From the NCBI GenBank assembly GCA_020241125.1, contig GCA_020241125.1_4708.1: a DNA stretch of 64,000 nucleotides, one strand, 5' to 3'. The position numbers and the translations under genes are program-made. Origin of the DNA: a phage. Shown piece by piece: positions 2,030 through 63,165 of the stretch (position 1 is the first letter of the stretch; every line of letters starts with the position of its first letter). The notes under the pieces are model-generated. The model searched no databases, had not been told where the DNA came from, and worked only from the letters and a program-made list of their open reading frames with translations.

Positions 2030-3616
2030 TTAGAAGTTGCCTTTGGTAGTTACCGCATCCACCAGGTTAAACAAATCAACGCTCAGCTTATACACCTCCT
2101 GCTGGCTACGGTTGAGCAGCGGGCTGTATGCGGATGGGTTGATGTTCGGCATGGTGTACGGAATCGGTGCAGAGCCGTCAACGCTGATCTTGAACTGGCT
2201 GTCCAGGAACAGGTTAATCGCGCCGCTCACCATAACCGCATTCGGGTTGTTACCCAACATGGAGGGTAGGATATTGGTAATCATGTCAGAACGCATTTGT
2301 TCAGCAGCACGGTTACAATCGTATCCTTTAATGAACGGTACAGCGTCGGTAACCGCAACCGCCCACTGACCAGGCATGATACCGAGTTCTGGGTGACCAT
2401 GGTTGTCAGCAATGAAACGGAACGACTCCAACATGCGATACGTCATCGCAGCAGGCATCATTGCAGCAAGCGATGAGCAATACAGCGTTGGATAATCGAT
2501 CACGTCCCAGCTCTGGCTGTCGGTCGGCATCCAACCAAACTCGGTGGTTGCTGATGTACCACGACGAGCTTCCACATACGGGAATAACGTTAAGACGTCA
2601 CGGATATGTTCACCGAACATCCGTTTCATGTCAGCCCAACTCAGGCTACCGCTGAAAGCGAACCCTTCATCACGCATAATCGCACCGAATACCGGATGTG
2701 CAACCAGCGGTTCTTCACGAACAGCTTGAGCGGCTTCTACGTAAATATCCTCGTTCTCTGCGCTACCTGGATGAGACCCGCTTTCGTACGTCTGACGAAT
2801 AGCGCCAACATTATCGAAGGCTTTTCTCAGATAGATGGTTGGGATGTTCGTATCAGCACTAGCGGGTTTGATTTTCTCTGTTGCGAAACACATTGCTGCT
2901 TCCACACCACGGAAAACCGGTTCCGGTTGCGGTGGGTAGGATGTACGATGAACCACATCAGCGTAGGCTGGATCGAACTGTTGCATCACGTTCTGCATGG
3001 CTGGGTCCATGAACTGGTTATCAAAACCACCATTACCTACCCAACGTGCTGTTGATGCATAGGTCAGCGTATCCTGAACACGAGTACTGAACTGAACATC
3101 ACGATTAACGGGGTCGTATGCGCCGGTCAACAGGTTCGTTGCGTCCATCGGGGTTGCACGAACAATTTGCTTACCGAACATGTCCGTTGTGGTTGTTTCG
3201 GTTACCTGGATTACGTTCGTGAAGAAGAACACCAGTTCGTTCGGCAGATCGATAGCGCGCGTTGTAAACGCATCGAGGCTTACAGAATGGTCGGTGTATC
3301 CAGAAATGTAATGGACACGCTTGGTTCCTGGTGCGAGGGCCAAGGATTCTTCTACCGCCATCATGAAATGGAAACGACGTGTGCCCCAACCATTCGCAAT
3401 CTCCGAAACCCCCTCAGGTTCTGCAGACTGCTGCAACAAACCGGTTGCAAGCTTATTGATTGCTGATGGTGTTGTTGCCGTACCGAACCGCGTCGTGTTA
3501 ATGAAGTCTTCGATGCTACGCATGCTATCTGCGTGGAATCGTAGTGGACGACGTTGTACGTTGTTATACGGTGCGGTTTCAACCATCAGTATTTCACGAA
3601 CATTCATCGGGATCAT
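2030..3616 (-). CDS. hypothetical protein
   Basis: 528 aa track ORF; AAGAGGAAA upstream; start lies 1 nt after the stop of the upstream gene. Confidence 0.6.
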   Translation of the reverse strand: MIPMNVREILMVETAPYNNVQRRPLRFHADSMRSIEDFINTTRFGTATTPSAINKLATGLLQQSAEPEGVSEIANGWGTRRFHFMMAVEESLALAPGTKRVHYISGYTDHSVSLDAFTTRAIDLPNELVFFFTNVIQVTETTTTDMFGKQIVRATPMDATNLLTGAYDPVNRDVQFSTRVQDTLTYASTARWVGNGGFDNQFMDPAMQNVMQQFDPAYADVVHRTSYPPQPEPVFRGVEAAMCFATEKIKPASADTNIPTIYLRKAFDNVGAIRQTYESGSHPGSAENEDIYVEAAQAVREEPLVAHPVFGAIMRDEGFAFSGSLSWADMKRMFGEHIRDVLTLFPYVEARRGTSATTEFGWMPTDSQSWDVIDYPTLYCSSLAAMMPAAMTYRMLESFRFIADNHGHPELGIMPGQWAVAVTDAVPFIKGYDCNRAAEQMRSDMITNILPSMLGNNPNAVMVSGAINLFLDSQFKISVDGSAPIPYTMPNINPSAYSPLLNRSQQEVYKLSVDLFNLVDAVTTKGNF

Positions 3617-3617
3617 T

Positions 3618-5204
3618 TTATTTTTTTCCTCTTAAATTTACTACGTGTTCATTTAATCGAACAACTAATTGCACAAGCTGCTGACGGATATCTGCTGGAC
3701 AAAGCATCAATCCTTTACGGTCAGCTGGGACTTTCTCAAGGATTTCCGGGCCTGCTGCTGAAACATCCCAGTCCCATTCACAAAACGCATCGGCCACCAT
3801 GTTAATACCGACAACCGGTAAAGTTGTACGTTCATCTTCATACATGGCGTGTGGATACAATTTATTGACAGTAATGATCTCCTGTGGTTTTAATTGGTGG
3901 ATAATCTGATAAACATCGTCGCGTTTGACCTGGATACCTACGGTCAGCGCGGCCAGTTGAGGAAAACCCCAATGGTCTAACAAACAAGCTGCGATCGCTA
4001 ACGCTTTTGCCTGATGCACGGCTTCAATCGGTGCCAGACTTCTCGCCGGAAGATGGCTATCAAGCAACCATTGCGCCAGTGCTCGGCATCCGCGGTTAAT
4101 TGGTTTTAACTCAACGGTGTCATCGTGTTTAGCGTACGTGTATCCGTCGTAACGTTTTGCGATACGCGCATACATGTCTTCAACTTTACCGTAAGGTGCC
4201 GTTTCGTCGACGTCGTGCAACACACGTTCCATCTGGGTAAGATACGCAATGTCGAGAATGAGTACACGTGGTGAACGTTTATCTTTCACCATCAACGCAT
4301 CAATCACGCCTTGACTGTCTTCATCTTGCGCATTCCCTCGCGGCGTTTTCTCGCGAATCGGTCCGCTGAAACGTCGTTCCGTACAAAGGTTATTCACATA
4401 GCTGAAGATCAGTGTTACTAGATGCGTACAACTCACTAACACCCCATCTTTAACGACAGGCTGTACAGCTTGGTCCAAGTCGCGTACGGCGAGACGGCGG
4501 ACGATGGCTTGTGAACGCAACCAGCCGGGCACTTTCTCCGTCGACATGTAATCCACGGTCATCGACAGCGTGATCTTTTTATCACCCGTCTGTGCGCGGA
4601 TATAGTCTTCCAGTCGGTCGTAAGCGGCGATATCATGAATGCGTGTTTTATACATCAACGACATAGCCACTTCTTCTTTACGAACCGTTCCGTACGTTTT
4701 CCCTGCGTCAATCAGAAACTCTGCCCAAATCGGCACCATCAGACGGACGTAGATCGCTAACGCCGTTAACTCAACGTAATCATTTCGTAAATAGGTTTTC
4801 TCAGGTATGTCATCCTCACCTAATGTTGTTTTCATGTCCGGTGGTAATTTTACCCAACCTGGGGTATTACACAATGCCAGAATCTCTTCGTACACAACCG
4901 GTTTGTAAATTTCACCAACAGCGCGACTCAACTCCTCCATTTGTTGTTGTGGAGCAATGTAGTTATCCATCGCTTCACGTGCTTTAACGAACCCTTCGAA
5001 GATGTCGTCAATTCGACGTGGGTTCTTTTGTTCTATCCAGGCGAGATACTTGTTAATCTCCCGCATCTGATTGCTAGCCATATCCCCATCAATCTTGATG
5101 TAACCCTGACCTGAAAATTCCACAGTACGTCCATCACGGTGTTTGATGAGATAGTGATCCAGCTTTTCTTTTCCTTGCGTCGTAATGACGGGCACTATGT
5201 GCAT
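3618..5204 (-). CDS. hypothetical protein
   Basis: Track ORF runs to 5339 with a GTG start and an Arg-rich N-terminal extension that overlaps a promoter-like motif; probable true start is internal Met 46 (MHIVPVITTQ...) with GAGG upstream. Start coordinate is approximate. Confidence 0.55.
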   Translation of the reverse strand: MHIVPVITTQGKEKLDHYLIKHRDGRTVEFSGQGYIKIDGDMASNQMREINKYLAWIEQKNPRRIDDIFEGFVKAREAMDNYIAPQQQMEELSRAVGEIYKPVVYEEILALCNTPGWVKLPPDMKTTLGEDDIPEKTYLRNDYVELTALAIYVRLMVPIWAEFLIDAGKTYGTVRKEEVAMSLMYKTRIHDIAAYDRLEDYIRAQTGDKKITLSMTVDYMSTEKVPGWLRSQAIVRRLAVRDLDQAVQPVVKDGVLVSCTHLVTLIFSYVNNLCTERRFSGPIREKTPRGNAQDEDSQGVIDALMVKDKRSPRVLILDIAYLTQMERVLHDVDETAPYGKVEDMYARIAKRYDGYTYAKHDDTVELKPINRGCRALAQWLLDSHLPARSLAPIEAVHQAKALAIAACLLDHWGFPQLAALTVGIQVKRDDVYQIIHQLKPQEIITVNKLYPHAMYEDERTTLPVVGINMVADAFCEWDWDVSAAGPEILEKVPADRKGLMLCPADIRQQLVQLVVRLNEHVVNLRGKK

Positions 5205-5254
5205 AACAACCTCTTTTCGCGGTTCCCTGTTAAAACGTCTTCTGTGACGTCTAC

Positions 5255-5295
5255 CACAAAGGTAATATAAGCGTGAATAATTTTGGATTCCGGCT
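5255..5295 (-). promoter_or_regulatory. early-promoter-like motif, copy A
   Basis: Plus-strand AGGTAATATAAGCGTGAATAATTTTGG; minus-strand reads TATATTACC after an A/T-rich block. Confidence 0.4.
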
Positions 5296-54607: not shown

Positions 54608-56254
54608 TTAGGCTCCACGAGGTCCCGTTAAGTTGCGTAATAGGAACGCAACCGTATCGTAACCAATATCGATGTTGAATTTATTTTTACCACTTACCCA
54701 GAAAGCTCGCTTCTTGTGCGAGTTGGTAATTTCGTCAATAGCTTCCATGGAATAAAGAACGTTAACCGAGACCGTATCACCATCAAAGTCCCCACCAAGT
54801 CCGGCGAGGTATGGCGCAGGGACAATAGTCGTTTCTACGAACGAAGCATTAGGTAACCAGTCGGGGTATTCCCATGCGATAAATCGTTCATCCGTTATTG
54901 GTTCCCAGTTACTATCCAGTTCGGTTTTCGGTTTTGCGGCGACGGTTGTACGTGCGTAACAGGTTAACGGGATAACGGATTGCATACCTGATACCGGATA
55001 ACGTGTTACCATCGCAGCCAGGTTATTCCAGTACTTATATCCGGCAATATAGATAAGCTCGGTGTAAGTAATGGGGTGAACATCCGCGCCAGGTTTATTC
55101 AACATCTCCGGGGGTAATTCACTCATGTCACGGAATAACCGAAACGAATCGTTGTTCACATAGACGAGGCAAAGATATCGTCCATTGACCATGATAGGCT
55201 CGTTACGCACGCCAGGATCGCTTAAGGTGTTCAGTAAACGTTCTATTCCGTCCCATGTTGTAAAGTCATCGATGGTGTCTGGATCAAGCGTGACGCGCTC
55301 ACGTTCCATCGTTTCGGTATCAATAAGTTCAACTTCTGTAACATCACGGACAAATATTTCCTGCAAAATACCTGTACGTAACGCATGTTGCGTTACTGGG
55401 AGAGCGGCTTTACTCATCTGGTATAACCCTAACTGAACCGCGGTACAGGAAGGCTGGTTAGGCGACCCTAATACCTCCGTTGTGGGGTTAATTGCCGAAA
55501 TAACGTTACGGGTTGAGTTCCAAACGCGACGTGAACCAAACTTACCTTGGAAGATCCCTTTCTTACCCTGGAACATATCCAACAGTAAAGCGTAGATATC
55601 GTTGAATGTTCTCTGTAAGCTCCAGCGCTGGCCGTCGTAAACGGGATCGGAATAATCTTTTAATCCATCAGGGACGGTGTTAGAAATTGCAAGGAAACGA
55701 CGATACAACTCCGTGATTTCTTGCTCGCTTTCATACCCACCTTCTTTTACTTCTATTTCACGTAAGCCTGCAGGCAATACCAGTAAGTGACGGGTCATCG
55801 CTTTGAACATGTTCTCTTCGACAACTTTAATTCGTAGCTCTCGTTGAGCTGAACCCGTTGAAACGAACTTGATATCCGCGACGTGTTGTGCAAAGAACCC
55901 GTATCCTGTTTGTCCTGTTAATGCATCAGACGCAACGAAGTCGCGTTGTTCGGGATCCCACCGAGCGTACGCCTTCCCCGACATGATATCGCCATAGAGG
56001 TGTTTTAATCGAATGAGACGGTCGTAAATGACAGGATGCAGGATTTCAACCTTGCATTCAATCACCGCAAATCGACGGTCTCGATCTTCACTACCCGCAC
56101 TACCAAAGATGGTGTAAGAATAGAAACCATCATCGTGGAAATTACCGGTGCTTGGGTCACGAATGCTCATGCTCGTGATCTTGGGGAGAAAACGTAACTG
56201 CTGTTTATCGAGGTGTAAAATACTAATATTAAACGGCTCTCTGACTTTAGCCAT
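54608..56254 (-). CDS. virion-type RNA polymerase beta-prime-like subunit, N-terminal fragment
   Basis: Track ORF 54608-56296; likely start at Met 15 with AAGAGGAG. Motifs LLVLPAGLREI (VLPPDLRP), ITELYRRF (DLNDLYRR), GGDFDGDTVSVNVLYSMEA (NADFDGDQMAVH). Confidence 0.7.
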   Translation of the reverse strand: MAKVREPFNISILHLDKQQLRFLPKITSMSIRDPSTGNFHDDGFYSYTIFGSAGSEDRDRRFAVIECKVEILHPVIYDRLIRLKHLYGDIMSGKAYARWDPEQRDFVASDALTGQTGYGFFAQHVADIKFVSTGSAQRELRIKVVEENMFKAMTRHLLVLPAGLREIEVKEGGYESEQEITELYRRFLAISNTVPDGLKDYSDPVYDGQRWSLQRTFNDIYALLLDMFQGKKGIFQGKFGSRRVWNSTRNVISAINPTTEVLGSPNQPSCTAVQLGLYQMSKAALPVTQHALRTGILQEIFVRDVTEVELIDTETMERERVTLDPDTIDDFTTWDGIERLLNTLSDPGVRNEPIMVNGRYLCLVYVNNDSFRLFRDMSELPPEMLNKPGADVHPITYTELIYIAGYKYWNNLAAMVTRYPVSGMQSVIPLTCYARTTVAAKPKTELDSNWEPITDERFIAWEYPDWLPNASFVETTIVPAPYLAGLGGDFDGDTVSVNVLYSMEAIDEITNSHKKRAFWVSGKNKFNIDIGYDTVAFLLRNLTGPRGA

Positions 56255-56499
56255 GGAGACACTCCTCTTTACCACCACCGGCTGCGGCGGTATCATCTGA
56301 ACACACGAGAGACGTAATGGGTGATGGCGTCACCCATCGCTTCCTTGCTTGAGGCGAGGAAGTTATTAGGTTACGTACCTGCCTGATTTTATCAGGTGGG
56401 CGATGTGTGAAGTTACGCTTCAACATTATCAATGCCGAAGGTAAACTTCGTGCATCACGTTCCAACGTAACATGGGAACGTATCGAACTGGAGGTATAC

Positions 56500-59400
56500 A
56501 TGGTAGATAAAACCCGTGTTGAGGGTGATGATAATTGGGACAACTGGGATGAAGACTTCTCCCTGGATCTCGATTTTAACGAACCCAAAGACGATCGTAA
56601 ACCGATAACACGCTTTGCGATAGGAGCGGTTAAAGGTGCTGCTGAGGATCTTACTTCCTACGAAAGAATGAAGGAGATCGCCAGAAACGCATTGCCTAAG
56701 GGCTACAGCGACGGTATGGATCTTATTGATTCCGCCGTCGGATCCACGAAGGAACTATACAATGAAGCCGTTCGTGACGTTCTTCCTAAGGTCCAAAGCT
56801 CAAAACGGTTAGCCGCACAACTGACCAAGAAATACCGTGCGAGCATGCCCGATTTCTCGAAGAAAATTCTTGAGCAATGGGAGCGAGAAGCCAAGGAAGA
56901 AGACGAACGTAAACAAGCTGAAGAAACCCTTCGTCAACGCATGGCGAGCGCGGGGGACGATGAGATCGCCCGCAAGGTTGCCGAGGCATTAGGCGAATCA
57001 GCAAACCAAAGCGCGGATCAGTTCGCTGAACAGCAAGCGAAAGAGAGTATCCGTGACGATATCGCTGACAAACGGTACGCTGTAACCAACAAACAAATGA
57101 GCGCGATGCAAGAAGGCGTCGCCAAGATGGTTGGTTTCAACAACGAATTCGCTGCACGCTACATGCGTAAAAGCCTGGAACTGAAATATCGTTCCTTAGC
57201 GATTCAACGTGCAAGTTTTGATCAGCATAAAAAGTTAGCCGAAGTCTATATCGGTTTATTACAAAACATCCAGAAGAATACGGCTTTACCTGATGCGGCT
57301 AAAGCAAAAATGTCGGAAGAATTCCGCCGTAGCGCGTACCAACGTTTCTTTGGTAATGCGTTAGATGCGATGAGTTCTTTCGAGAACCGTTTCTTTGCCG
57401 ATGTTAAGAAGAACCTTGCCACCAACGCATTAGGCGCTTTAAAAGGTGTCGTGTCCGGCGCAAACGATGCGTTATACGGTTTAAACGAAGCGCGTGACTC
57501 GATGTCCATGATGGACGGGATGGGGTCAGAAGGCGATATTAAGGAAATGCAAGGAAAGATGTTGGGTCAGTTCATTGGCTCAACTGTCGCGCCGTGGATG
57601 GCTAATAAAGGCAGGATGGCGTTACGCGATTTAGCAAAACGTCACCCCAATGCTAAATTCGCTAGCGCGTTAAAAGCCGTGGATCAAGGTGGTGAGGCTG
57701 CCGCTTACACGACGCGTAATCTCGGTAAACTGCTCCAGGAAGATATTCGTAAAAACGAATTCAATCTTAGCGATCCGTTTTACAAGCAATTGTTACGCGG
57801 TGCAGGGCGTTGGGCGTTCAACATGGACAGCGGACGTAACTTCCGCGTGATGAACGACACCGCTGAAACACTGGCGGAGCAAACATCTTTCGACGGTTTA
57901 ACTTACCGCAGTATCAATGAAGTTATTCCTGGTTTTCTTGCACGCATTCTGAAAAGCAGTGAAGGTATCCGCACCGGAAACAGCGATCCTGACTACGAGG
58001 TCTATGACGGCATCAGCGGACAATTCGTGTCTCAGCGCACGCGTGAACAAAGCGTCAATGACACGCTGTTTAACAAACGTACATTTGGTTATTACGCCAG
58101 CCGTTTCAACGAGGTTATCTCGGTCATCGATCCCGATAAGCAATTATCGGAAAAAGCCAGAAAGGCGCTGGCCAAGCAGTTGGCGCGAGATAGCGACGCG
58201 AACATCGCATTCGACCCGGCTCGTTTTACGGATGAAAGCAACTTCGATCGTAGTATTGACCGCGACGCTATTAAGGAACTTTCCACGTACTTTCGTGACC
58301 GTTACGGTATTCGTGATGATGTCAACGATAAGGGCGAACGTCATCAGGTCATTGGAAACCGCGGGCAATATTACACGGAACGTAACCGAGCCGATCTTCG
58401 TTACGGTCATCTGAAATCTTTACAACCGGATATCCAGCGTAACCTTAACCTGCTGAAACGTACTGGTGACGTCCAATATCTGGAACGGATTGGGATTGTA
58501 ACGAGAAATAGCGACGGAAGCTACTCGGTTAATCACGATCGGTATTTCTCTGAAATCGATCAATACATCGACCGACCGGAGTACGCTGACCGCGGCGATG
58601 TCAATACGCGATTAACCGCTCAGGAAACAAGAGCGCTGGCGCTGGGTTATCGTGACGCAAAACCATCAGCTGGTGACGTCCAAAATGTCGGCCTGCCGAA
58701 CATCGGTCGTAAGGCTGCTGGAACAGTAACCGTTGATGAAAACATCGGCTACGATAAATGGTGGAACGACACAGGTGTTATCACCACATCGCTTGAAGAA
58801 CAGAATCGAGCGTGGCAAGAGCTTTATCTCGAGGCGTTGTCCGAAGCATCCGAACAACGTGTTGAAATGCTTGCGCTGCTGAAAGCCATTTCTGAGAAAG
58901 ACTGGTCTAATAACGTTTCGCTGGATGGTGAAGATGTACCTGAAGGTACAGCACCCATTTCATTTATCGATCGTGCCAAACAAAAACTCGGCGGACGCAA
59001 CCTGTTTAAAGGCGGCCGCAATCTCCTCTGGAAAGGAATTAAAAATACCGCACGTTTAGGTGTTAAAGGCGCACGCTGGGGTGCAGAACGCACGTTGGGT
59101 AGTTTGGTAAATTCTGGCCGACGCATTATCAATTTCAACCGCTTCGTGTTCGGCGCATTATCCAAGGTTGATCAGGTTCCGTTTGACATTTACGTTAAAG
59201 GGGAATCCCAACCACGCATACTGGCTGCCAAACTTCGTCAGGGGTTATACTTCGACGAAGCGACAGGAAAAGCCGTAAAACGGATGAAGGATATCAAAGG
59301 CCCACTCGTTGATGCGGATGGAAACATCGTAATCAGCAACGAGGATATCGAGAAAGGGTTGGTCACTCGCGCTGGTCGTGCCTTTGAGAATTCAGGACTT

Positions 59401-62400
59401 AAAGCATGGGCACGTGAAGGTCTTAATGGAATAACGACGGCATTAAGTCTCCCACGGATGTTAAAACGCGGTGCGGTTGAGATCTACAAACAGCTTGACA
59501 AAACACCCGACGTTTACGTCAAGGGAGAATCAACGCCTCGTCTGTTGTCCATGGTGTTAGCAGCGGGTGGGTATTTCCGTCGCTCGGATGGACAAGTCAT
59601 CAAAAATCTTGAAGACATCGATGGTGATGTTGTTGATGCACAAGGTAACGTCGTACTTACGCTTGCCGACATGCAGAAAGGACTTGTCGATAAATACGGT
59701 AAAGCGATTCGTCGTTTAAAAGAAAAGCTCATCAACTTCGGTGTAAAAGCTTTTACGTTACCGTTAACGTTGCTACGTAAGACAAAGGACATCCTTAAAG
59801 CCCTTCCAGGTAAAACCGTTAACGGTCTACGGCGGATGGGATTAAATTTCCAATCACCCGACGCATTACTGGTGGGAACAACGTCGAGCATGGTAGATCG
59901 CCTCGATGCTATTTACCAGCTTCTTGACCAGCGTATGCCGGGAGGTGATAAGGATTACCGCGATTGGAATGGCGATGGTGTTCGAGAAGGATCGTTGGAA
60001 GACCTGAAACGTAAGCGTGAAGCCAAGGAAAACGGTAAGGATGACATCGGCAAAGATTCCAATAAAGGAGAAGAAAAGGAGAAGAAACGAGGGTTACTCG
60101 GAAGCCTTTTCGATATGCTCGGTGATACCGCAATAGGTAAACGTCTCATGGCGAGTCCGCTTGGAAAAATTCTGGGTGGTCTTGGGGCGGTGTTAAGCGG
60201 CGGTGCGTCGTTAACTGGGTTGTTGGGCAAAGGTCTCATTAGAGGAACCGGCGCGCTGGTCAAGGGAGGACTAAGTGCGGCAGGATGGTTAGGACGTGGT
60301 GCGTTAATGGCGGGTGGGGCCGCGTTGAACGCCGTTGGTGGGTTATCGGGATTAGGTGCATTCCTCATCTCACCTGTTGGGCTTGCTATCGCTGGCGGTG
60401 CGTTGGCTGCTTATGCTGGATGGAAGATCTATCAGCATTTCGCCGAGAAGCCTGACCCGATGCAGAAGCTCCGTCTTATTGCATACGGTGCAAAAGGGGA
60501 TGATAAAGACTTCAATAAGAAGCTGCTTGCGACAGAAACATACCTCACCGACCATGTGGTCATGACCGGGGATACCATCGGATTCGATCCGAAAGCCGAT
60601 TCTGAAAAGATTCTCGAAATCTGGGAATTGTCTCTGGAAGATTCCGACCGAATGAACGAATGGAAACGCTGGTATCTGCATCGTTTTATTCCTGTTTTCG
60701 CTCGTGCGTACAAACTCTGGAAAGAGCATATGCCGGACGAGAAGAAATACATGGAAATGGATAAATATCCGAACGGTGAGAACAAAGTGAAATGGTCGGA
60801 AGCGTTTATCTGGCCTTCCGATAGTCCTGATGGTCCGTATTACGTCGAAGCTAACCCGTTGGGTTCTTCTGGTGCGACGCGTTATATTGCTGGTCAAGAC
60901 GTCAAAACCTTGATGCTGAAACAGCTCGAAGCCATCAAGAAAGAGTACCAGAATCAGATTAAGCAATACACTCATGATGAGGCTATTGCTGATTGGTCAC
61001 GGATGTCTGACACACAACGTAAATCCGTTGCGCCTAACGCATTACGTGGTCAGAAAGCGTCATTACGTTTTAACGATAAACGTTACAACAGCGCTGGTGC
61101 TAAAGGACGACAGAAACTGGATGCAACCGCGGTTATTGAAAGCGTAGACCGTCGTGGTAGAAAATGGGTTGCCGGTGGATACATCGATGAACTCACCAGT
61201 CTCCGTGTTCGTGCGTACGGTATTAAGGTTCCGTTGTTAAGTCAGATAAAAGTGCTGATGGAACTCGAAGACGCTGTAGAACCTGGCGTTGTCGCTGAAG
61301 GTAAAGGTGTTAAATACGGTGGCGATCTTGTCGCGCTCTACAAGAAATTCGCGACGAAGTTCGGAAGAGACGTTAACAGCAAGCATGATCAGGATATCTG
61401 GTTTGCTTGGATGAACAACCGTTTCCTGCCCGTCTTTTTAACCTATTACCAACAAGTTAGCGACATGGGCGGTCAAGGACTTCTGTCCGACGTGGTACAG
61501 AACCTGAAAGACAGCCAACGTTGGGAAATCGGTGAAGAACTTGTCGCAGCGCAATACCGTGATGAGAAAGGTACACTGCAGCCCGTATGGTCGTGGAACA
61601 GTTGTGGTTTCTCCGGTACTGAAGCTAACACCACCAGCAGTTCAACAAAGAGTCAGCTCGATCTGTTAAAAGAATATGCGGATAAAGAGAAGGTTCGTGA
61701 GAAGAACGCGGAAGCATCGCAAGAGGATACCGATAAATTATCGAAGATCCAAGAGCTGATGATGAAGCAGGCTGGGTACGAGAAGAAAGACGGTGTCTGG
61801 CAGAAGAAATCTCGCATTACCGGCGGGATGAGTAACTCCGAAGCGAATTACAACCCCAATGGGAATAAGGTCGGTGCAAGCAGCTTTACTGCTTCAGCTA
61901 CTTCCAGTGCGGGATTGGGGTCAACCGGCGATCTTACCGGATTGCCTAACATGGGCTTACAGAAACCTGCAACGGGGCCAGGTCCCGAAGCTGGACGTCG
62001 TGCGCTTGTTAAATCCGCTGTGAAACGCGGTATTACCGATCCAATGGAAATGGCGATGTTCCTTGCAAACATCGAACATGAATCGGGGAACTACACTCAC
62101 GTACGTGAGGGGAACTATAAGACACCAGAGCGTCTTAAACAGGTCTTCCCTTACAAATTCCGTGACGTGCAGGATGCAGCGCAGACGATTAGCATGGGGC
62201 CGGAAGCGGTGTTCGAACGCGTGTACGGTAATCGTAAAGACTTAGGGAACACGCAGAAAGGAGACGGGGCGAAGTATTTAGGACGTGGCTTCATTCAGGT
62301 TACCGGTAAAGCTAACTACGCTCGTCTGTCCAAGACCTTGAATAAAGATCTTGTCAGCGATCCATCATACCTGGAAACGCCGGAAGGTGCGGCGGAAGGT

Positions 62401-63165
62401 AGTGTCGCGTGGTGGCTCAACCGAGGCAATGTGTTACGCGATCCTGCGAAACGGGGTGATGTGCGCCAAGTTCGTTATCTGGTTAACGGTGGCTATAATG
62501 GATTACGTGACGTTGAACAGCGCTCTGCTTATTGGATTCAGGCGGCTAAGAATGGCACCCTGAAGAAAATGATGGATGAGTTATCGGGATCAACATCAGG
62601 CGATCAAGCTGAAGGACCGACTACCGCCGAGCAGGTGAAGAATGAAGCAGCCCAAGAGGCAAACGGAACGCCAACTGTAAGCAACGATCCGCAAGCCCCA
62701 GCACCTTCAACCACCCCTGAAGCTAAACCGTCTGCGGCTGCCGGTACGGCTCCAGCACCCGGAGAAGCATCACCAGCGCCTGGAAGTTTCGAAACAGCGA
62801 AAGCTGCGGCAGGACAACCGACATCAACGCCAGCACTTAGCGATTTGCCGTCAAACCCTGGCGCAAATCGAGGGATATCGGTTCCGAATACGCCTGCACA
62901 GGTCGCGCAGTCTGCGACACAAACATCGGCCGCGAGTGAGAACTTCTACGGTAGCGCAGGTGAAATTCTCCGACAGCAGCTGACCACGCAGCAGAACATC
63001 GAGAAGAACACCGGTAGAACGAATGAACTTATTTCGGAATTAATCCAAGCCGTTAAGGGTTCTTCTATCGGTAAGGGTTCTGCAAGTCCTTCTCAACAAC
63101 AGGCGATGTCGCTACCTAATCGTCCGCAAGGAATCTCTCCAACACGGACAAGGTACGCGCAGTAG
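56500..63165 (+). CDS. giant virion protein with GH19 lysozyme-like domain
   Basis: Track ORF from 56407; likely ATG at 56500 after GGAGG. About 2220 aa: coiled-coil-like N-terminus, 108-codon tandem duplication, Gly-zipper hydrophobic segment, GH19-like block (NIEHESGN ... YLGRGFIQVTGKANY), P/A/T-rich C-terminus. Confidence 0.7.
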   Translation: MVDKTRVEGDDNWDNWDEDFSLDLDFNEPKDDRKPITRFAIGAVKGAAEDLTSYERMKEIARNALPKGYSDGMDLIDSAVGSTKELYNEAVRDVLPKVQSSKRLAAQLTKKYRASMPDFSKKILEQWEREAKEEDERKQAEETLRQRMASAGDDEIARKVAEALGESANQSADQFAEQQAKESIRDDIADKRYAVTNKQMSAMQEGVAKMVGFNNEFAARYMRKSLELKYRSLAIQRASFDQHKKLAEVYIGLLQNIQKNTALPDAAKAKMSEEFRRSAYQRFFGNALDAMSSFENRFFADVKKNLATNALGALKGVVSGANDALYGLNEARDSMSMMDGMGSEGDIKEMQGKMLGQFIGSTVAPWMANKGRMALRDLAKRHPNAKFASALKAVDQGGEAAAYTTRNLGKLLQEDIRKNEFNLSDPFYKQLLRGAGRWAFNMDSGRNFRVMNDTAETLAEQTSFDGLTYRSINEVIPGFLARILKSSEGIRTGNSDPDYEVYDGISGQFVSQRTREQSVNDTLFNKRTFGYYASRFNEVISVIDPDKQLSEKARKALAKQLARDSDANIAFDPARFTDESNFDRSIDRDAIKELSTYFRDRYGIRDDVNDKGERHQVIGNRGQYYTERNRADLRYGHLKSLQPDIQRNLNLLKRTGDVQYLERIGIVTRNSDGSYSVNHDRYFSEIDQYIDRPEYADRGDVNTRLTAQETRALALGYRDAKPSAGDVQNVGLPNIGRKAAGTVTVDENIGYDKWWNDTGVITTSLEEQNRAWQELYLEALSEASEQRVEMLALLKAISEKDWSNNVSLDGEDVPEGTAPISFIDRAKQKLGGRNLFKGGRNLLWKGIKNTARLGVKGARWGAERTLGSLVNSGRRIINFNRFVFGALSKVDQVPFDIYVKGESQPRILAAKLRQGLYFDEATGKAVKRMKDIKGPLVDADGNIVISNEDIEKGLVTRAGRAFENSGLKAWAREGLNGITTALSLPRMLKRGAVEIYKQLDKTPDVYVKGESTPRLLSMVLAAGGYFRRSDGQVIKNLEDIDGDVVDAQGNVVLTLADMQKGLVDKYGKAIRRLKEKLINFGVKAFTLPLTLLRKTKDILKALPGKTVNGLRRMGLNFQSPDALLVGTTSSMVDRLDAIYQLLDQRMPGGDKDYRDWNGDGVREGSLEDLKRKREAKENGKDDIGKDSNKGEEKEKKRGLLGSLFDMLGDTAIGKRLMASPLGKILGGLGAVLSGGASLTGLLGKGLIRGTGALVKGGLSAAGWLGRGALMAGGAALNAVGGLSGLGAFLISPVGLAIAGGALAAYAGWKIYQHFAEKPDPMQKLRLIAYGAKGDDKDFNKKLLATETYLTDHVVMTGDTIGFDPKADSEKILEIWELSLEDSDRMNEWKRWYLHRFIPVFARAYKLWKEHMPDEKKYMEMDKYPNGENKVKWSEAFIWPSDSPDGPYYVEANPLGSSGATRYIAGQDVKTLMLKQLEAIKKEYQNQIKQYTHDEAIADWSRMSDTQRKSVAPNALRGQKASLRFNDKRYNSAGAKGRQKLDATAVIESVDRRGRKWVAGGYIDELTSLRVRAYGIKVPLLSQIKVLMELEDAVEPGVVAEGKGVKYGGDLVALYKKFATKFGRDVNSKHDQDIWFAWMNNRFLPVFLTYYQQVSDMGGQGLLSDVVQNLKDSQRWEIGEELVAAQYRDEKGTLQPVWSWNSCGFSGTEANTTSSSTKSQLDLLKEYADKEKVREKNAEASQEDTDKLSKIQELMMKQAGYEKKDGVWQKKSRITGGMSNSEANYNPNGNKVGASSFTASATSSAGLGSTGDLTGLPNMGLQKPATGPGPEAGRRALVKSAVKRGITDPMEMAMFLANIEHESGNYTHVREGNYKTPERLKQVFPYKFRDVQDAAQTISMGPEAVFERVYGNRKDLGNTQKGDGAKYLGRGFIQVTGKANYARLSKTLNKDLVSDPSYLETPEGAAEGSVAWWLNRGNVLRDPAKRGDVRQVRYLVNGGYNGLRDVEQRSAYWIQAAKNGTLKKMMDELSGSTSGDQAEGPTTAEQVKNEAAQEANGTPTVSNDPQAPAPSTTPEAKPSAAAGTAPAPGEASPAPGSFETAKAAAGQPTSTPALSDLPSNPGANRGISVPNTPAQVAQSATQTSAASENFYGSAGEILRQQLTTQQNIEKNTGRTNELISELIQAVKGSSIGKGSASPSQQQAMSLPNRPQGISPTRTRYAQ
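59185..59832 (+). repeat. in-frame tandem duplication of a 108-codon module inside the giant protein gene
   Basis: DIYVKGESQPRILAAKLRQGLYFDEATGKAV...DADGNIVISNEDIEKGLV (from 59185) against DVYVKGESTPRLLSMVLAAGGYFRRSDGQVI...DAQGNVVLTLADMQKGLV (from 59509). Confidence 0.6.

Follow-up and report, generated by a model that had tools for sequence, protein, structure and literature searches.

A family-specific domain, repeated in tandem long ago and kept by selection, in a giant tail protein of a Goslar-like jumbo phage

The giant ORF and its two repeat units

The stretch of DNA analysed here over its full length of 64,000 nucleotides (nt), which we call the window, comes from a phage (GenBank assembly GCA_020241125.1, contig GCA_020241125.1_4708.1). 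Its plus strand carries a giant open reading frame (ORF) of 2252 amino acids (aa) at 56407..63165, and the region 59185-59832 within this ORF, translated in frame, yields two adjoining units of 108 aa, unit 1 (aa 927-1034) and unit 2 (aa 1035-1142). The window is 95.6% identical in nucleotide sequence to Escherichia phage Goslar, a jumbo phage of E. coli, and the ORF corresponds to Goslar_00232 (YP_009820915.1), a coding sequence (CDS) of the same length; the repeat regions of the two proteins are 98% identical. As described below, this giant tail protein of a Goslar-like chimallivirus carries, side by side, two copies of a domain confined to its family, and the pair is old and has been maintained by selection.

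A blastp self-comparison reported the identity match only, and the units were instead compared by pairwise Smith-Waterman alignment with shuffled controls and by hidden Markov models (HMMs). The local alignment under BLOSUM62 scores 185, with 41 identities over 104 positions (39%) and one 5-aa gap, whereas 2000 shuffles of unit 2 give a mean of 28.2 (standard deviation 5.2) and a maximum of 55, corresponding to z = 30. The preliminary description of this DNA had proposed an in-frame tandem duplication of a module inside the giant protein, made of two 324 nt units with about 40 percent identity, and had named self-alignment against shuffled controls as the comparison that could refute it; both the duplication and the degree of identity are borne out. 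The motifs D[IV]YVKGES.PR.L ... DA.GN.V....D...KGLV are seen in both copies, and identity rises to 48% in a conserved core of 66 aa. When an HMM derived from the units was run against the six-frame translation of the whole window, exactly two copies were found, and a relaxed HMM search revealed no degenerate third copy in the giant protein.

Each unit is composed of a mildly acidic, beta-rich knob of about 66 aa (mean net charge of the cores, -1.4) followed by a basic amphipathic, predicted-helical linker of about 40-60 aa. The consensus of 501 units reads D-[VI]-Y-V-x-G-E-x-x-P-R-L-x-A-x-K-[LM]-x-x-G-x-Y-x-D-x-x-T-G-K-x-I-x4-D-I-x-G-x-V-x-D-x-x-G-N-x-V-L-[ST]-x-E-D-x-x-K-G-L-V-D-x-x-G-K. Its most frequent residues are Asp1 (100% of the units that are aligned from column 1), Tyr3 (90%), Pro10 (89%), Gly20 (94%), Tyr22 (95%), Gly39 (90%) and Asp43 (85%), and Asp36 is also among the strongly conserved polar or aromatic positions. 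The linkers are Gly/Ala/Leu/Lys-rich, with a median length of 51 aa, a mean net charge of +6.3 and a helical hydrophobic moment of 1.61, compared with 1.15 for shuffled sequences.

In the window, the core of module 1 (aa 927-992, 59185..59382, plus strand) is recognized by the HMM at 1.2e-29 and conforms to the consensus of the 501 units, and that of module 2 (aa 1035-1100, 59509..59706, plus strand), the second copy of the knob, at 1.4e-29. The array is preceded by a basic, Gly-rich, linker-like segment defined by its composition and charge (aa 861-926, 58987..59184, plus strand). Linker 1 (aa 993-1034, 59383..59508, plus strand) is basic, amphipathic and poorly conserved, and is predicted to be helical from the structure model and the linker statistics; linker 2 (aa 1101-1160, 59707..59886, plus strand) is likewise basic and amphipathic according to the model and the charge calculation. 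The net charges before, between and after the two cores are +11, +3 and +9, respectively.

Structure prediction agrees with this division. AlphaFold2 run on one unit with 6 sequences returned a mean predicted local distance difference test score (pLDDT) of 78.7, with about 90 in the core. For the unit pair with a 25-sequence alignment, both cores are modelled as a small beta-rich domain with two short helices, at pLDDT 92-96 (92-96 for core 1 and 91-96 for core 2), and the linkers as helices at pLDDT 43-56; the predicted template modelling score of the pair is 0.42. The predicted picture is thus one of rigid knobs on flexible links. A Foldseek search of BFVD with the knob matched only halves of the same giant-protein family (E values 1e-8 to 1e-5, TM scores 0.63-0.77), and therefore the knob fold is reproduced independently in the models of other family members. 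There is no Pfam or NCBIfam model for the knob and no PDB fold match.

Age and spread of the array

The preliminary description called the duplication recent, which is refuted both by the comparison of the two units and by the relatives. Their nucleotide identity is 42% without gaps and 52% within the core, the longest exact run in register is 8 nt, and a repeat search of the DNA found no repeat spaced by 324 nt; therefore, the repeat is visible at the protein level only. Identity by codon position is 50% at the first, 71% at the second and 35% at the third position. The same codon is used at 14 of the 32 identical degenerate residues, close to the 12.2 expected from the codon usage of the gene. 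Since the synonymous sites are saturated and no DNA repeat is left, the similarity must have been held by selection on the protein.

The age of the array is also apparent from the relatives. A pair of units lies at the homologous position of the ortholog in 14 other chimallivirus genera. Units are no more alike within one protein (mean identity 36.3%) than in random pairs between proteins (36.8%); the highest identity within a protein anywhere in the family is 67%, and a fresh duplication was seen in no family member. A neighbour-joining tree of 33 units over 62 columns carried too much noise to establish positional orthology alone, and it was replaced by a best-match test on 165 proteins: when proteins were compared, the closest match to the last unit of one was again the last unit of the other in 53% of cases, where chance would give about 37%. 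From the equal identities within and between proteins and from the matching of last units, it follows that the array is old and that its copies are positionally orthologous.

To see how widely the array occurs, relatives were drawn from GenBank phage records and from an exhaustive search of cluster representatives; a word-indexed protein database holds almost no members of the family, and only short fragments in it matched the repeat region and the 15-phage profile. With tblastn, the 216-aa pair matched 230 phage records, 137 of which cover at least 80% of both units. The hosts of the matched phages include Pseudomonas, Erwinia, Vibrio, Serratia, Aeromonas, Klebsiella, Ralstonia, Burkholderia and Xanthomonas. 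The exhaustive profile search over 1.84 billion representatives gave 1158 proteins at E ≤ 1e-3, 919 of them at E ≤ 1e-10. The domain was seen in the gp181-type giant protein family only, and a gp181-type protein is kept in every chimallivirus examined.

The preliminary description had suggested comparing the copy number of the repeat among related phages, and this comparison is informative. The 15 extracted orthologs mostly have 2 copies, and iterated HMM searches found 3 in the phiKZ-like phages OMKO1, PhiPA3 and LucasX. Among the best 150 of the 1158 proteins, a ranking that favours many-copy proteins, 56 have 2 copies, 40 have 3, 40 have 4, 11 have 5 and 3 have 6, with a median repeat period of about 119 aa; most of these 150 are giants of 1.6-3.9 kaa (thousand amino acids), and the few shorter ones are probably fragments. 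In gp239 of phage SPN3US (10210-17328, minus strand, of its extracted locus) a single divergent module is detectable at aa 909-983, and therefore the copy number in the family spans 1 to 6. The median total length for 2 to 6 copies is 2212, 2369, 2518, 2547 and 3343 aa (r = 0.59), and the N- and C-terminal parts stay constant in size as total length grows with copy number. The architecture, examined in 159 members, consists of a median of 865 aa, the array, a hydrophobic segment and a C-terminal part of about 1140 aa; the hydrophobic segment follows the last unit in 145 of the 159, at a median distance of 217 aa.

A few database entries that surfaced in these searches deserve mention. The ENA protein P0005 (245 aa), probably a chimera created in assembly, has a DksA-like N-terminus followed by a near-identical fragment of module 2. 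The NCBI proteins P0001 and P0003, listed with assemblies of Salmonella enterica and E. coli, are Goslar-like fragments of the giant protein, which suggests that Goslar-like phage DNA was present in those sequencing samples.

The giant protein and its neighbourhood

The assignment of the giant ORF rests on the ORF list, the identity with Goslar, a match to PHROG 3201 and synteny. The PHROG 3201 match (E value 3.4e-295) spans aa 42-1203 (56530..60015, plus strand), the N-terminal, family-defining region that includes the module array and that no Pfam model matches; PDB and Pfam searches gave no match for the N-terminal and middle parts of the giant protein. In the PHROG profile, both units fall on the same positions (1009-1115), i.e. 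the repeat is represented there by a single copy.

The gene order around the ORF is conserved in 15 chimalliviruses and SPN3US: the gene is divergent from that of the virion RNA polymerase beta subunit and is followed by a gene for a gp182-like virion protein. This neighbourhood is shared by Goslar, OMKO1, EL, PhiPA3, PCH45, RSF1, Eowyn, Moabite, RisingSun, FBKp24, SPN3US and others, and in the window, too, the upstream neighbour of the giant ORF is the polymerase gene on the opposite strand. In addition, blastp relates the protein to SPN3US gp239 over its N-terminal 550 aa (E value 6e-19). Thus, given the same neighbours and the sequence homology, the giant ORF is, on sequence grounds, the ortholog of phiKZ gp181 and SPN3US gp239, i.e. 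a virion tail lysozyme as judged from its relatives.

The polymerase gene that serves as the synteny anchor lies at 54608..56296 on the minus strand and has annotated homologs in Goslar, EL, PhiPA3, RSF1, Moabite and SPN3US. The window is collinear with Goslar at 96% identity and lacks about 2.05 kb that lies inside the corresponding gene region of Goslar (3239-5289 of the Goslar locus). The piece present only in Goslar consists of an annotated group I intron and the CDS Goslar_00230, which is phiKZ ORF179-like; the junction in the window is near 54781-54789. As the intron piece is not in the window, the polymerase gene is therefore one uninterrupted ORF of 562 aa and represents an allele of this virion RNA polymerase subunit gene that has no intron.

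Downstream of the array, the giant protein has a Gly/Ala-rich hydrophobic, transmembrane-like segment (aa 1247-1342, 60145..60432, plus strand), where Kyte-Doolittle windows reach 1.9 and aa 1298-1339 form an uncharged run. Further towards the C-terminus lies a GH19-type peptidoglycan hydrolase domain (aa 1867-2091, 62005..62679, plus strand), recognized through the endolysin family PHROG 181 at 8e-53 and the PDB endolysins 9eoi and 7r6s at 1e-22; its match to Pfam Glyco_hydro_19 is weak and below the cutoff. The C-terminal tail (aa ~2100-2252, 62700-63162, plus strand) is of low complexity and Pro/Ala/Ser/Thr-rich, with 20 Ala, 12 Pro and 23 Ser+Thr in aa 2101-2200.

The muralytic domain has been swapped between lineages while the array upstream was kept. 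It is of the GH19 type in the window, in Goslar and in one further relative (P0006), an SLT transglycosylase in the phiKZ-like OMKO1 and in RSF1, and SLT+VanY in one metagenomic relative (P0008). The last of these, a protein of 3095 aa, also has a Peptidase_S74 intramolecular-chaperone (self-cleaving) domain at aa 776-828, directly upstream of an array of six units. This is a hint that, in some relatives, the N-terminal part may build a trimeric rod resembling a fibre and may be removed by cleavage.

Several properties of the orthologs are published. The gp181-type protein is essential in phiKZ, and phiKZ gp181 was described as a structural peptidoglycan hydrolase of 2237 aa (Briers et al. 2008). 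Thomas et al. (2016, PMC5105663) called SPN3US gp239 a tape measure protein; particles without tails do not contain it, and for this family a location in the tail thus has experimental support. In Goslar, the protein bears the label 'Tail protein' and is estimated at 3.4-8.0 copies in each virion (bioRxiv 10.64898/2026.04.21.720040, Table S4). It is neither modelled nor mentioned in the phiKZ cryo-electron microscopy (cryo-EM) atlas (PMC13250141) or in the Goslar structure preprint. Public records name the protein inconsistently and, for the most part, misleadingly: 'tail fiber protein', 'putative chitinase', 'endolysin' and 'tail sheath protein' all occur, and Goslar_00232 itself is a 'putative chitinase' in GenBank and a 'tail fiber protein' in RefSeq.

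In genomic position, size and order of parts (N-terminal part, array, hydrophobic segment, muralytic domain), the window protein resembles phiKZ gp181 and Goslar_00232. The phiKZ-like proteins differ in combining 3 modules with an SLT transglycosylase, whereas the window and Goslar combine 2 modules with GH19. SPN3US gp239 is a syntenic homolog with the same neighbours and differs in having one divergent module only.

Possible roles of the array

By analogy, the giant protein is a putative tape-measure or ejection protein. We consider it moderately probable that the conserved units form a genuine array that acts as a structural, beads-on-a-string segment of such a protein; most of this confidence belongs to the identity of the array, and much less to the roles of its parts. 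A few copies of the protein would fill the lumen of the tail tube, which is about 68 Å wide in phiKZ (PMC13250141). Upon contraction, the C-terminal part would exit first and the lysozyme would cut the murein, after which the hydrophobic segment would insert into a membrane. Within the knob-linker array, the basic helices may contact the lumen wall or the membrane, and the knobs may be oligomerisation or spacer nodes. The copy number would then set the reach of the knob-linker segment, not the length of the tail.

Several points weigh against this structural role. Neither experiment nor structure places the array anywhere, the protein having been left out of both cryo-EM atlases, and the tape-measure role itself is an annotation by analogy. 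The roles suggested for knobs and linkers derive from composition and predicted structure, and the conserved Asp1, Tyr3, Pro10, Gly20, Tyr22 and Asp43 could equally mark a ligand site. Moreover, as far as two data points can show, module number, total length and the length from the N-terminus to the hydrophobic segment do not scale with the tail. Goslar has 2 units in 2252 aa, a hydrophobic segment at aa 1247 and 46 tail layers of 39.16 Å (~1800 Å); the phiKZ-like protein has 3 units in 2237 aa and a hydrophobic segment at aa 1297, with 43 layers of 37.73 Å (~1620 Å). The phiKp24 paper gives the helical rise and not the layer count.

Tandem repeats in tape-measure-like proteins are a known kind of feature, and the protein itself is already in GenBank. 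In siphophage tape measures (TP901-1, lambda-type), gain or loss of internal tandem repeats changes tail length, the short helical units adding length linearly. The giant protein is similar in having in-frame tandem repeats in what is putatively a protein of the tail lumen, with a copy number that varies among relatives. Unlike the siphophage repeats, its unit holds a folded beta domain and its copies, of ancient origin, have diverged strongly; nor does copy number follow tail length in the two phages measured. Phage T5 offers another comparison: its tape measure protein pb2 combines a ruler with hydrophobic and muralytic parts, and presumably leaves the tail and opens the envelope. Its great length, its low copy number, the hydrophobic segment in its interior and the cell-wall hydrolase at its C-terminus are features also seen in the giant protein; pb2 differs in belonging to a non-contractile tail, in being mainly coiled coil, in having no array of knob domains and in showing no sequence relationship. 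It has been listed as a muralytic tail protein (PMC5380687).

Other explanations of the repeat have to be weighed against the structural one. That the similarity of the two units is due to chance or composition has a negligible probability: the missing DNA-level repeat would be in keeping with it, but a chance match was rejected at z = 30, the 501 units in 165 proteins share the same conserved columns in the profile, and independent structure predictions give both copies the same fold. The preliminary description had raised the idea of a length-tuning module. Spelled out, a recent in-frame duplication would lengthen the giant protein and so tune tail length in the way of siphophage repeat gain and loss. 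A copy number of 1 to 6 among relatives, the rise of total protein length with copy number (r = 0.59) and the standing of the protein as a likely tape measure all speak for it. However, the duplication is old, as indicated by synonymous saturation, the missing DNA repeat, its presence in at least 14 genera and the fact that no pair within a protein exceeds 67% identity. Furthermore, the 3-unit tube of phiKZ is shorter than the 2-unit tube of Goslar, the position of the hydrophobic segment is no better a tracker, and, unlike a helical ruler, which extends by 1.5 Å per residue, a compact beta knob contributes no such length. The idea thus gains no support from the only two phages with counted layers (phiKZ, 3 units and 43 layers; Goslar, 2 units and 46 layers), and is weakened by these two data points; we consider length tuning distinctly unlikely.

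The knobs might instead be repeated binding domains, as the preliminary description also suggested, here for the cell envelope (murein, lipopolysaccharide or membrane). They would anchor or orient the protein after its ejection and thereby keep the action of the C-terminal lysozyme and of the hydrophobic segment local, comparable to tandem LysM or SH3b domains in lysins. This seems unlikely to us. The knobs always co-occur with a muralytic domain of whichever type (GH19, SLT or SLT+VanY), they are small tandem domains with strongly conserved Asp1, Tyr3, Tyr22, Asp36 and Asp43, and their conservation across phages of very different hosts would fit a universal ligand such as murein, but profile and fold searches lend no support. 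The known cell-wall and carbohydrate-binding repeats (LysM, SH3b, PG_binding_1 and carbohydrate-binding modules) were rejected, there being no match to a family profile or fold. A tail fibre, as the RefSeq and PHROG names would have it, with the repeats as shaft or receptor-binding repeats, is a very improbable identity for the protein. The name 'tail fiber protein' is attached to PHROG 3201 and many RefSeq records, and the Peptidase_S74 domain just upstream of the array in P0008 is typical of trimeric fibres. Nevertheless, an internal transmembrane-like segment and a lysozyme domain are not expected of a fibre, nor is the number of only ~3-8 copies per virion easily reconciled with one. The modules keep 30-50% conservation among phages whose hosts are unrelated, whereas hypervariability is the rule in receptor-binding parts, and in the Goslar study host recognition is attributed to DUF7941 filaments. 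The fibre role was accordingly rejected on architecture, copy number and cross-host conservation of the modules.

A more far-reaching variant would make the knobs and basic amphipathic helices a chimallivirus-specific device for crossing the envelope, in which the linkers and the hydrophobic segment remodel or line the host membrane after ejection. We hold this to be improbable. If it were true, the protein would belong to the apparatus by which DNA reaches the early-infection vesicle, a membrane-bound compartment particular to these phages, and the number of units (1-6) would be matched to the dimensions of the host envelope or periplasm, not to tail length.

The finding is also of practical value. 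The knob domain and its array of 1-6 copies appear to be undescribed: there is no Pfam, NCBIfam or PDB entry, and no description of the repeat or module array was found in the literature on gp181, tape measures, jumbo phages and the Goslar and phiKZ structures. The giant protein is the largest virion protein omitted from both recent cryo-EM atlases, those of phiKZ and Goslar, and a confidently folded, family-wide domain with sharp boundaries, a consensus and a variable copy number provides a handle for locating it in the density of the tube lumen. The same definition gives geneticists a clean target for in-frame deletions of units, and the analysis corrects the widespread 'tail fiber' and 'chitinase' annotations. 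As biology, the array is an ordinary case, a domain that was repeated long ago within a large structural protein of a phage, the domain itself being modestly new.

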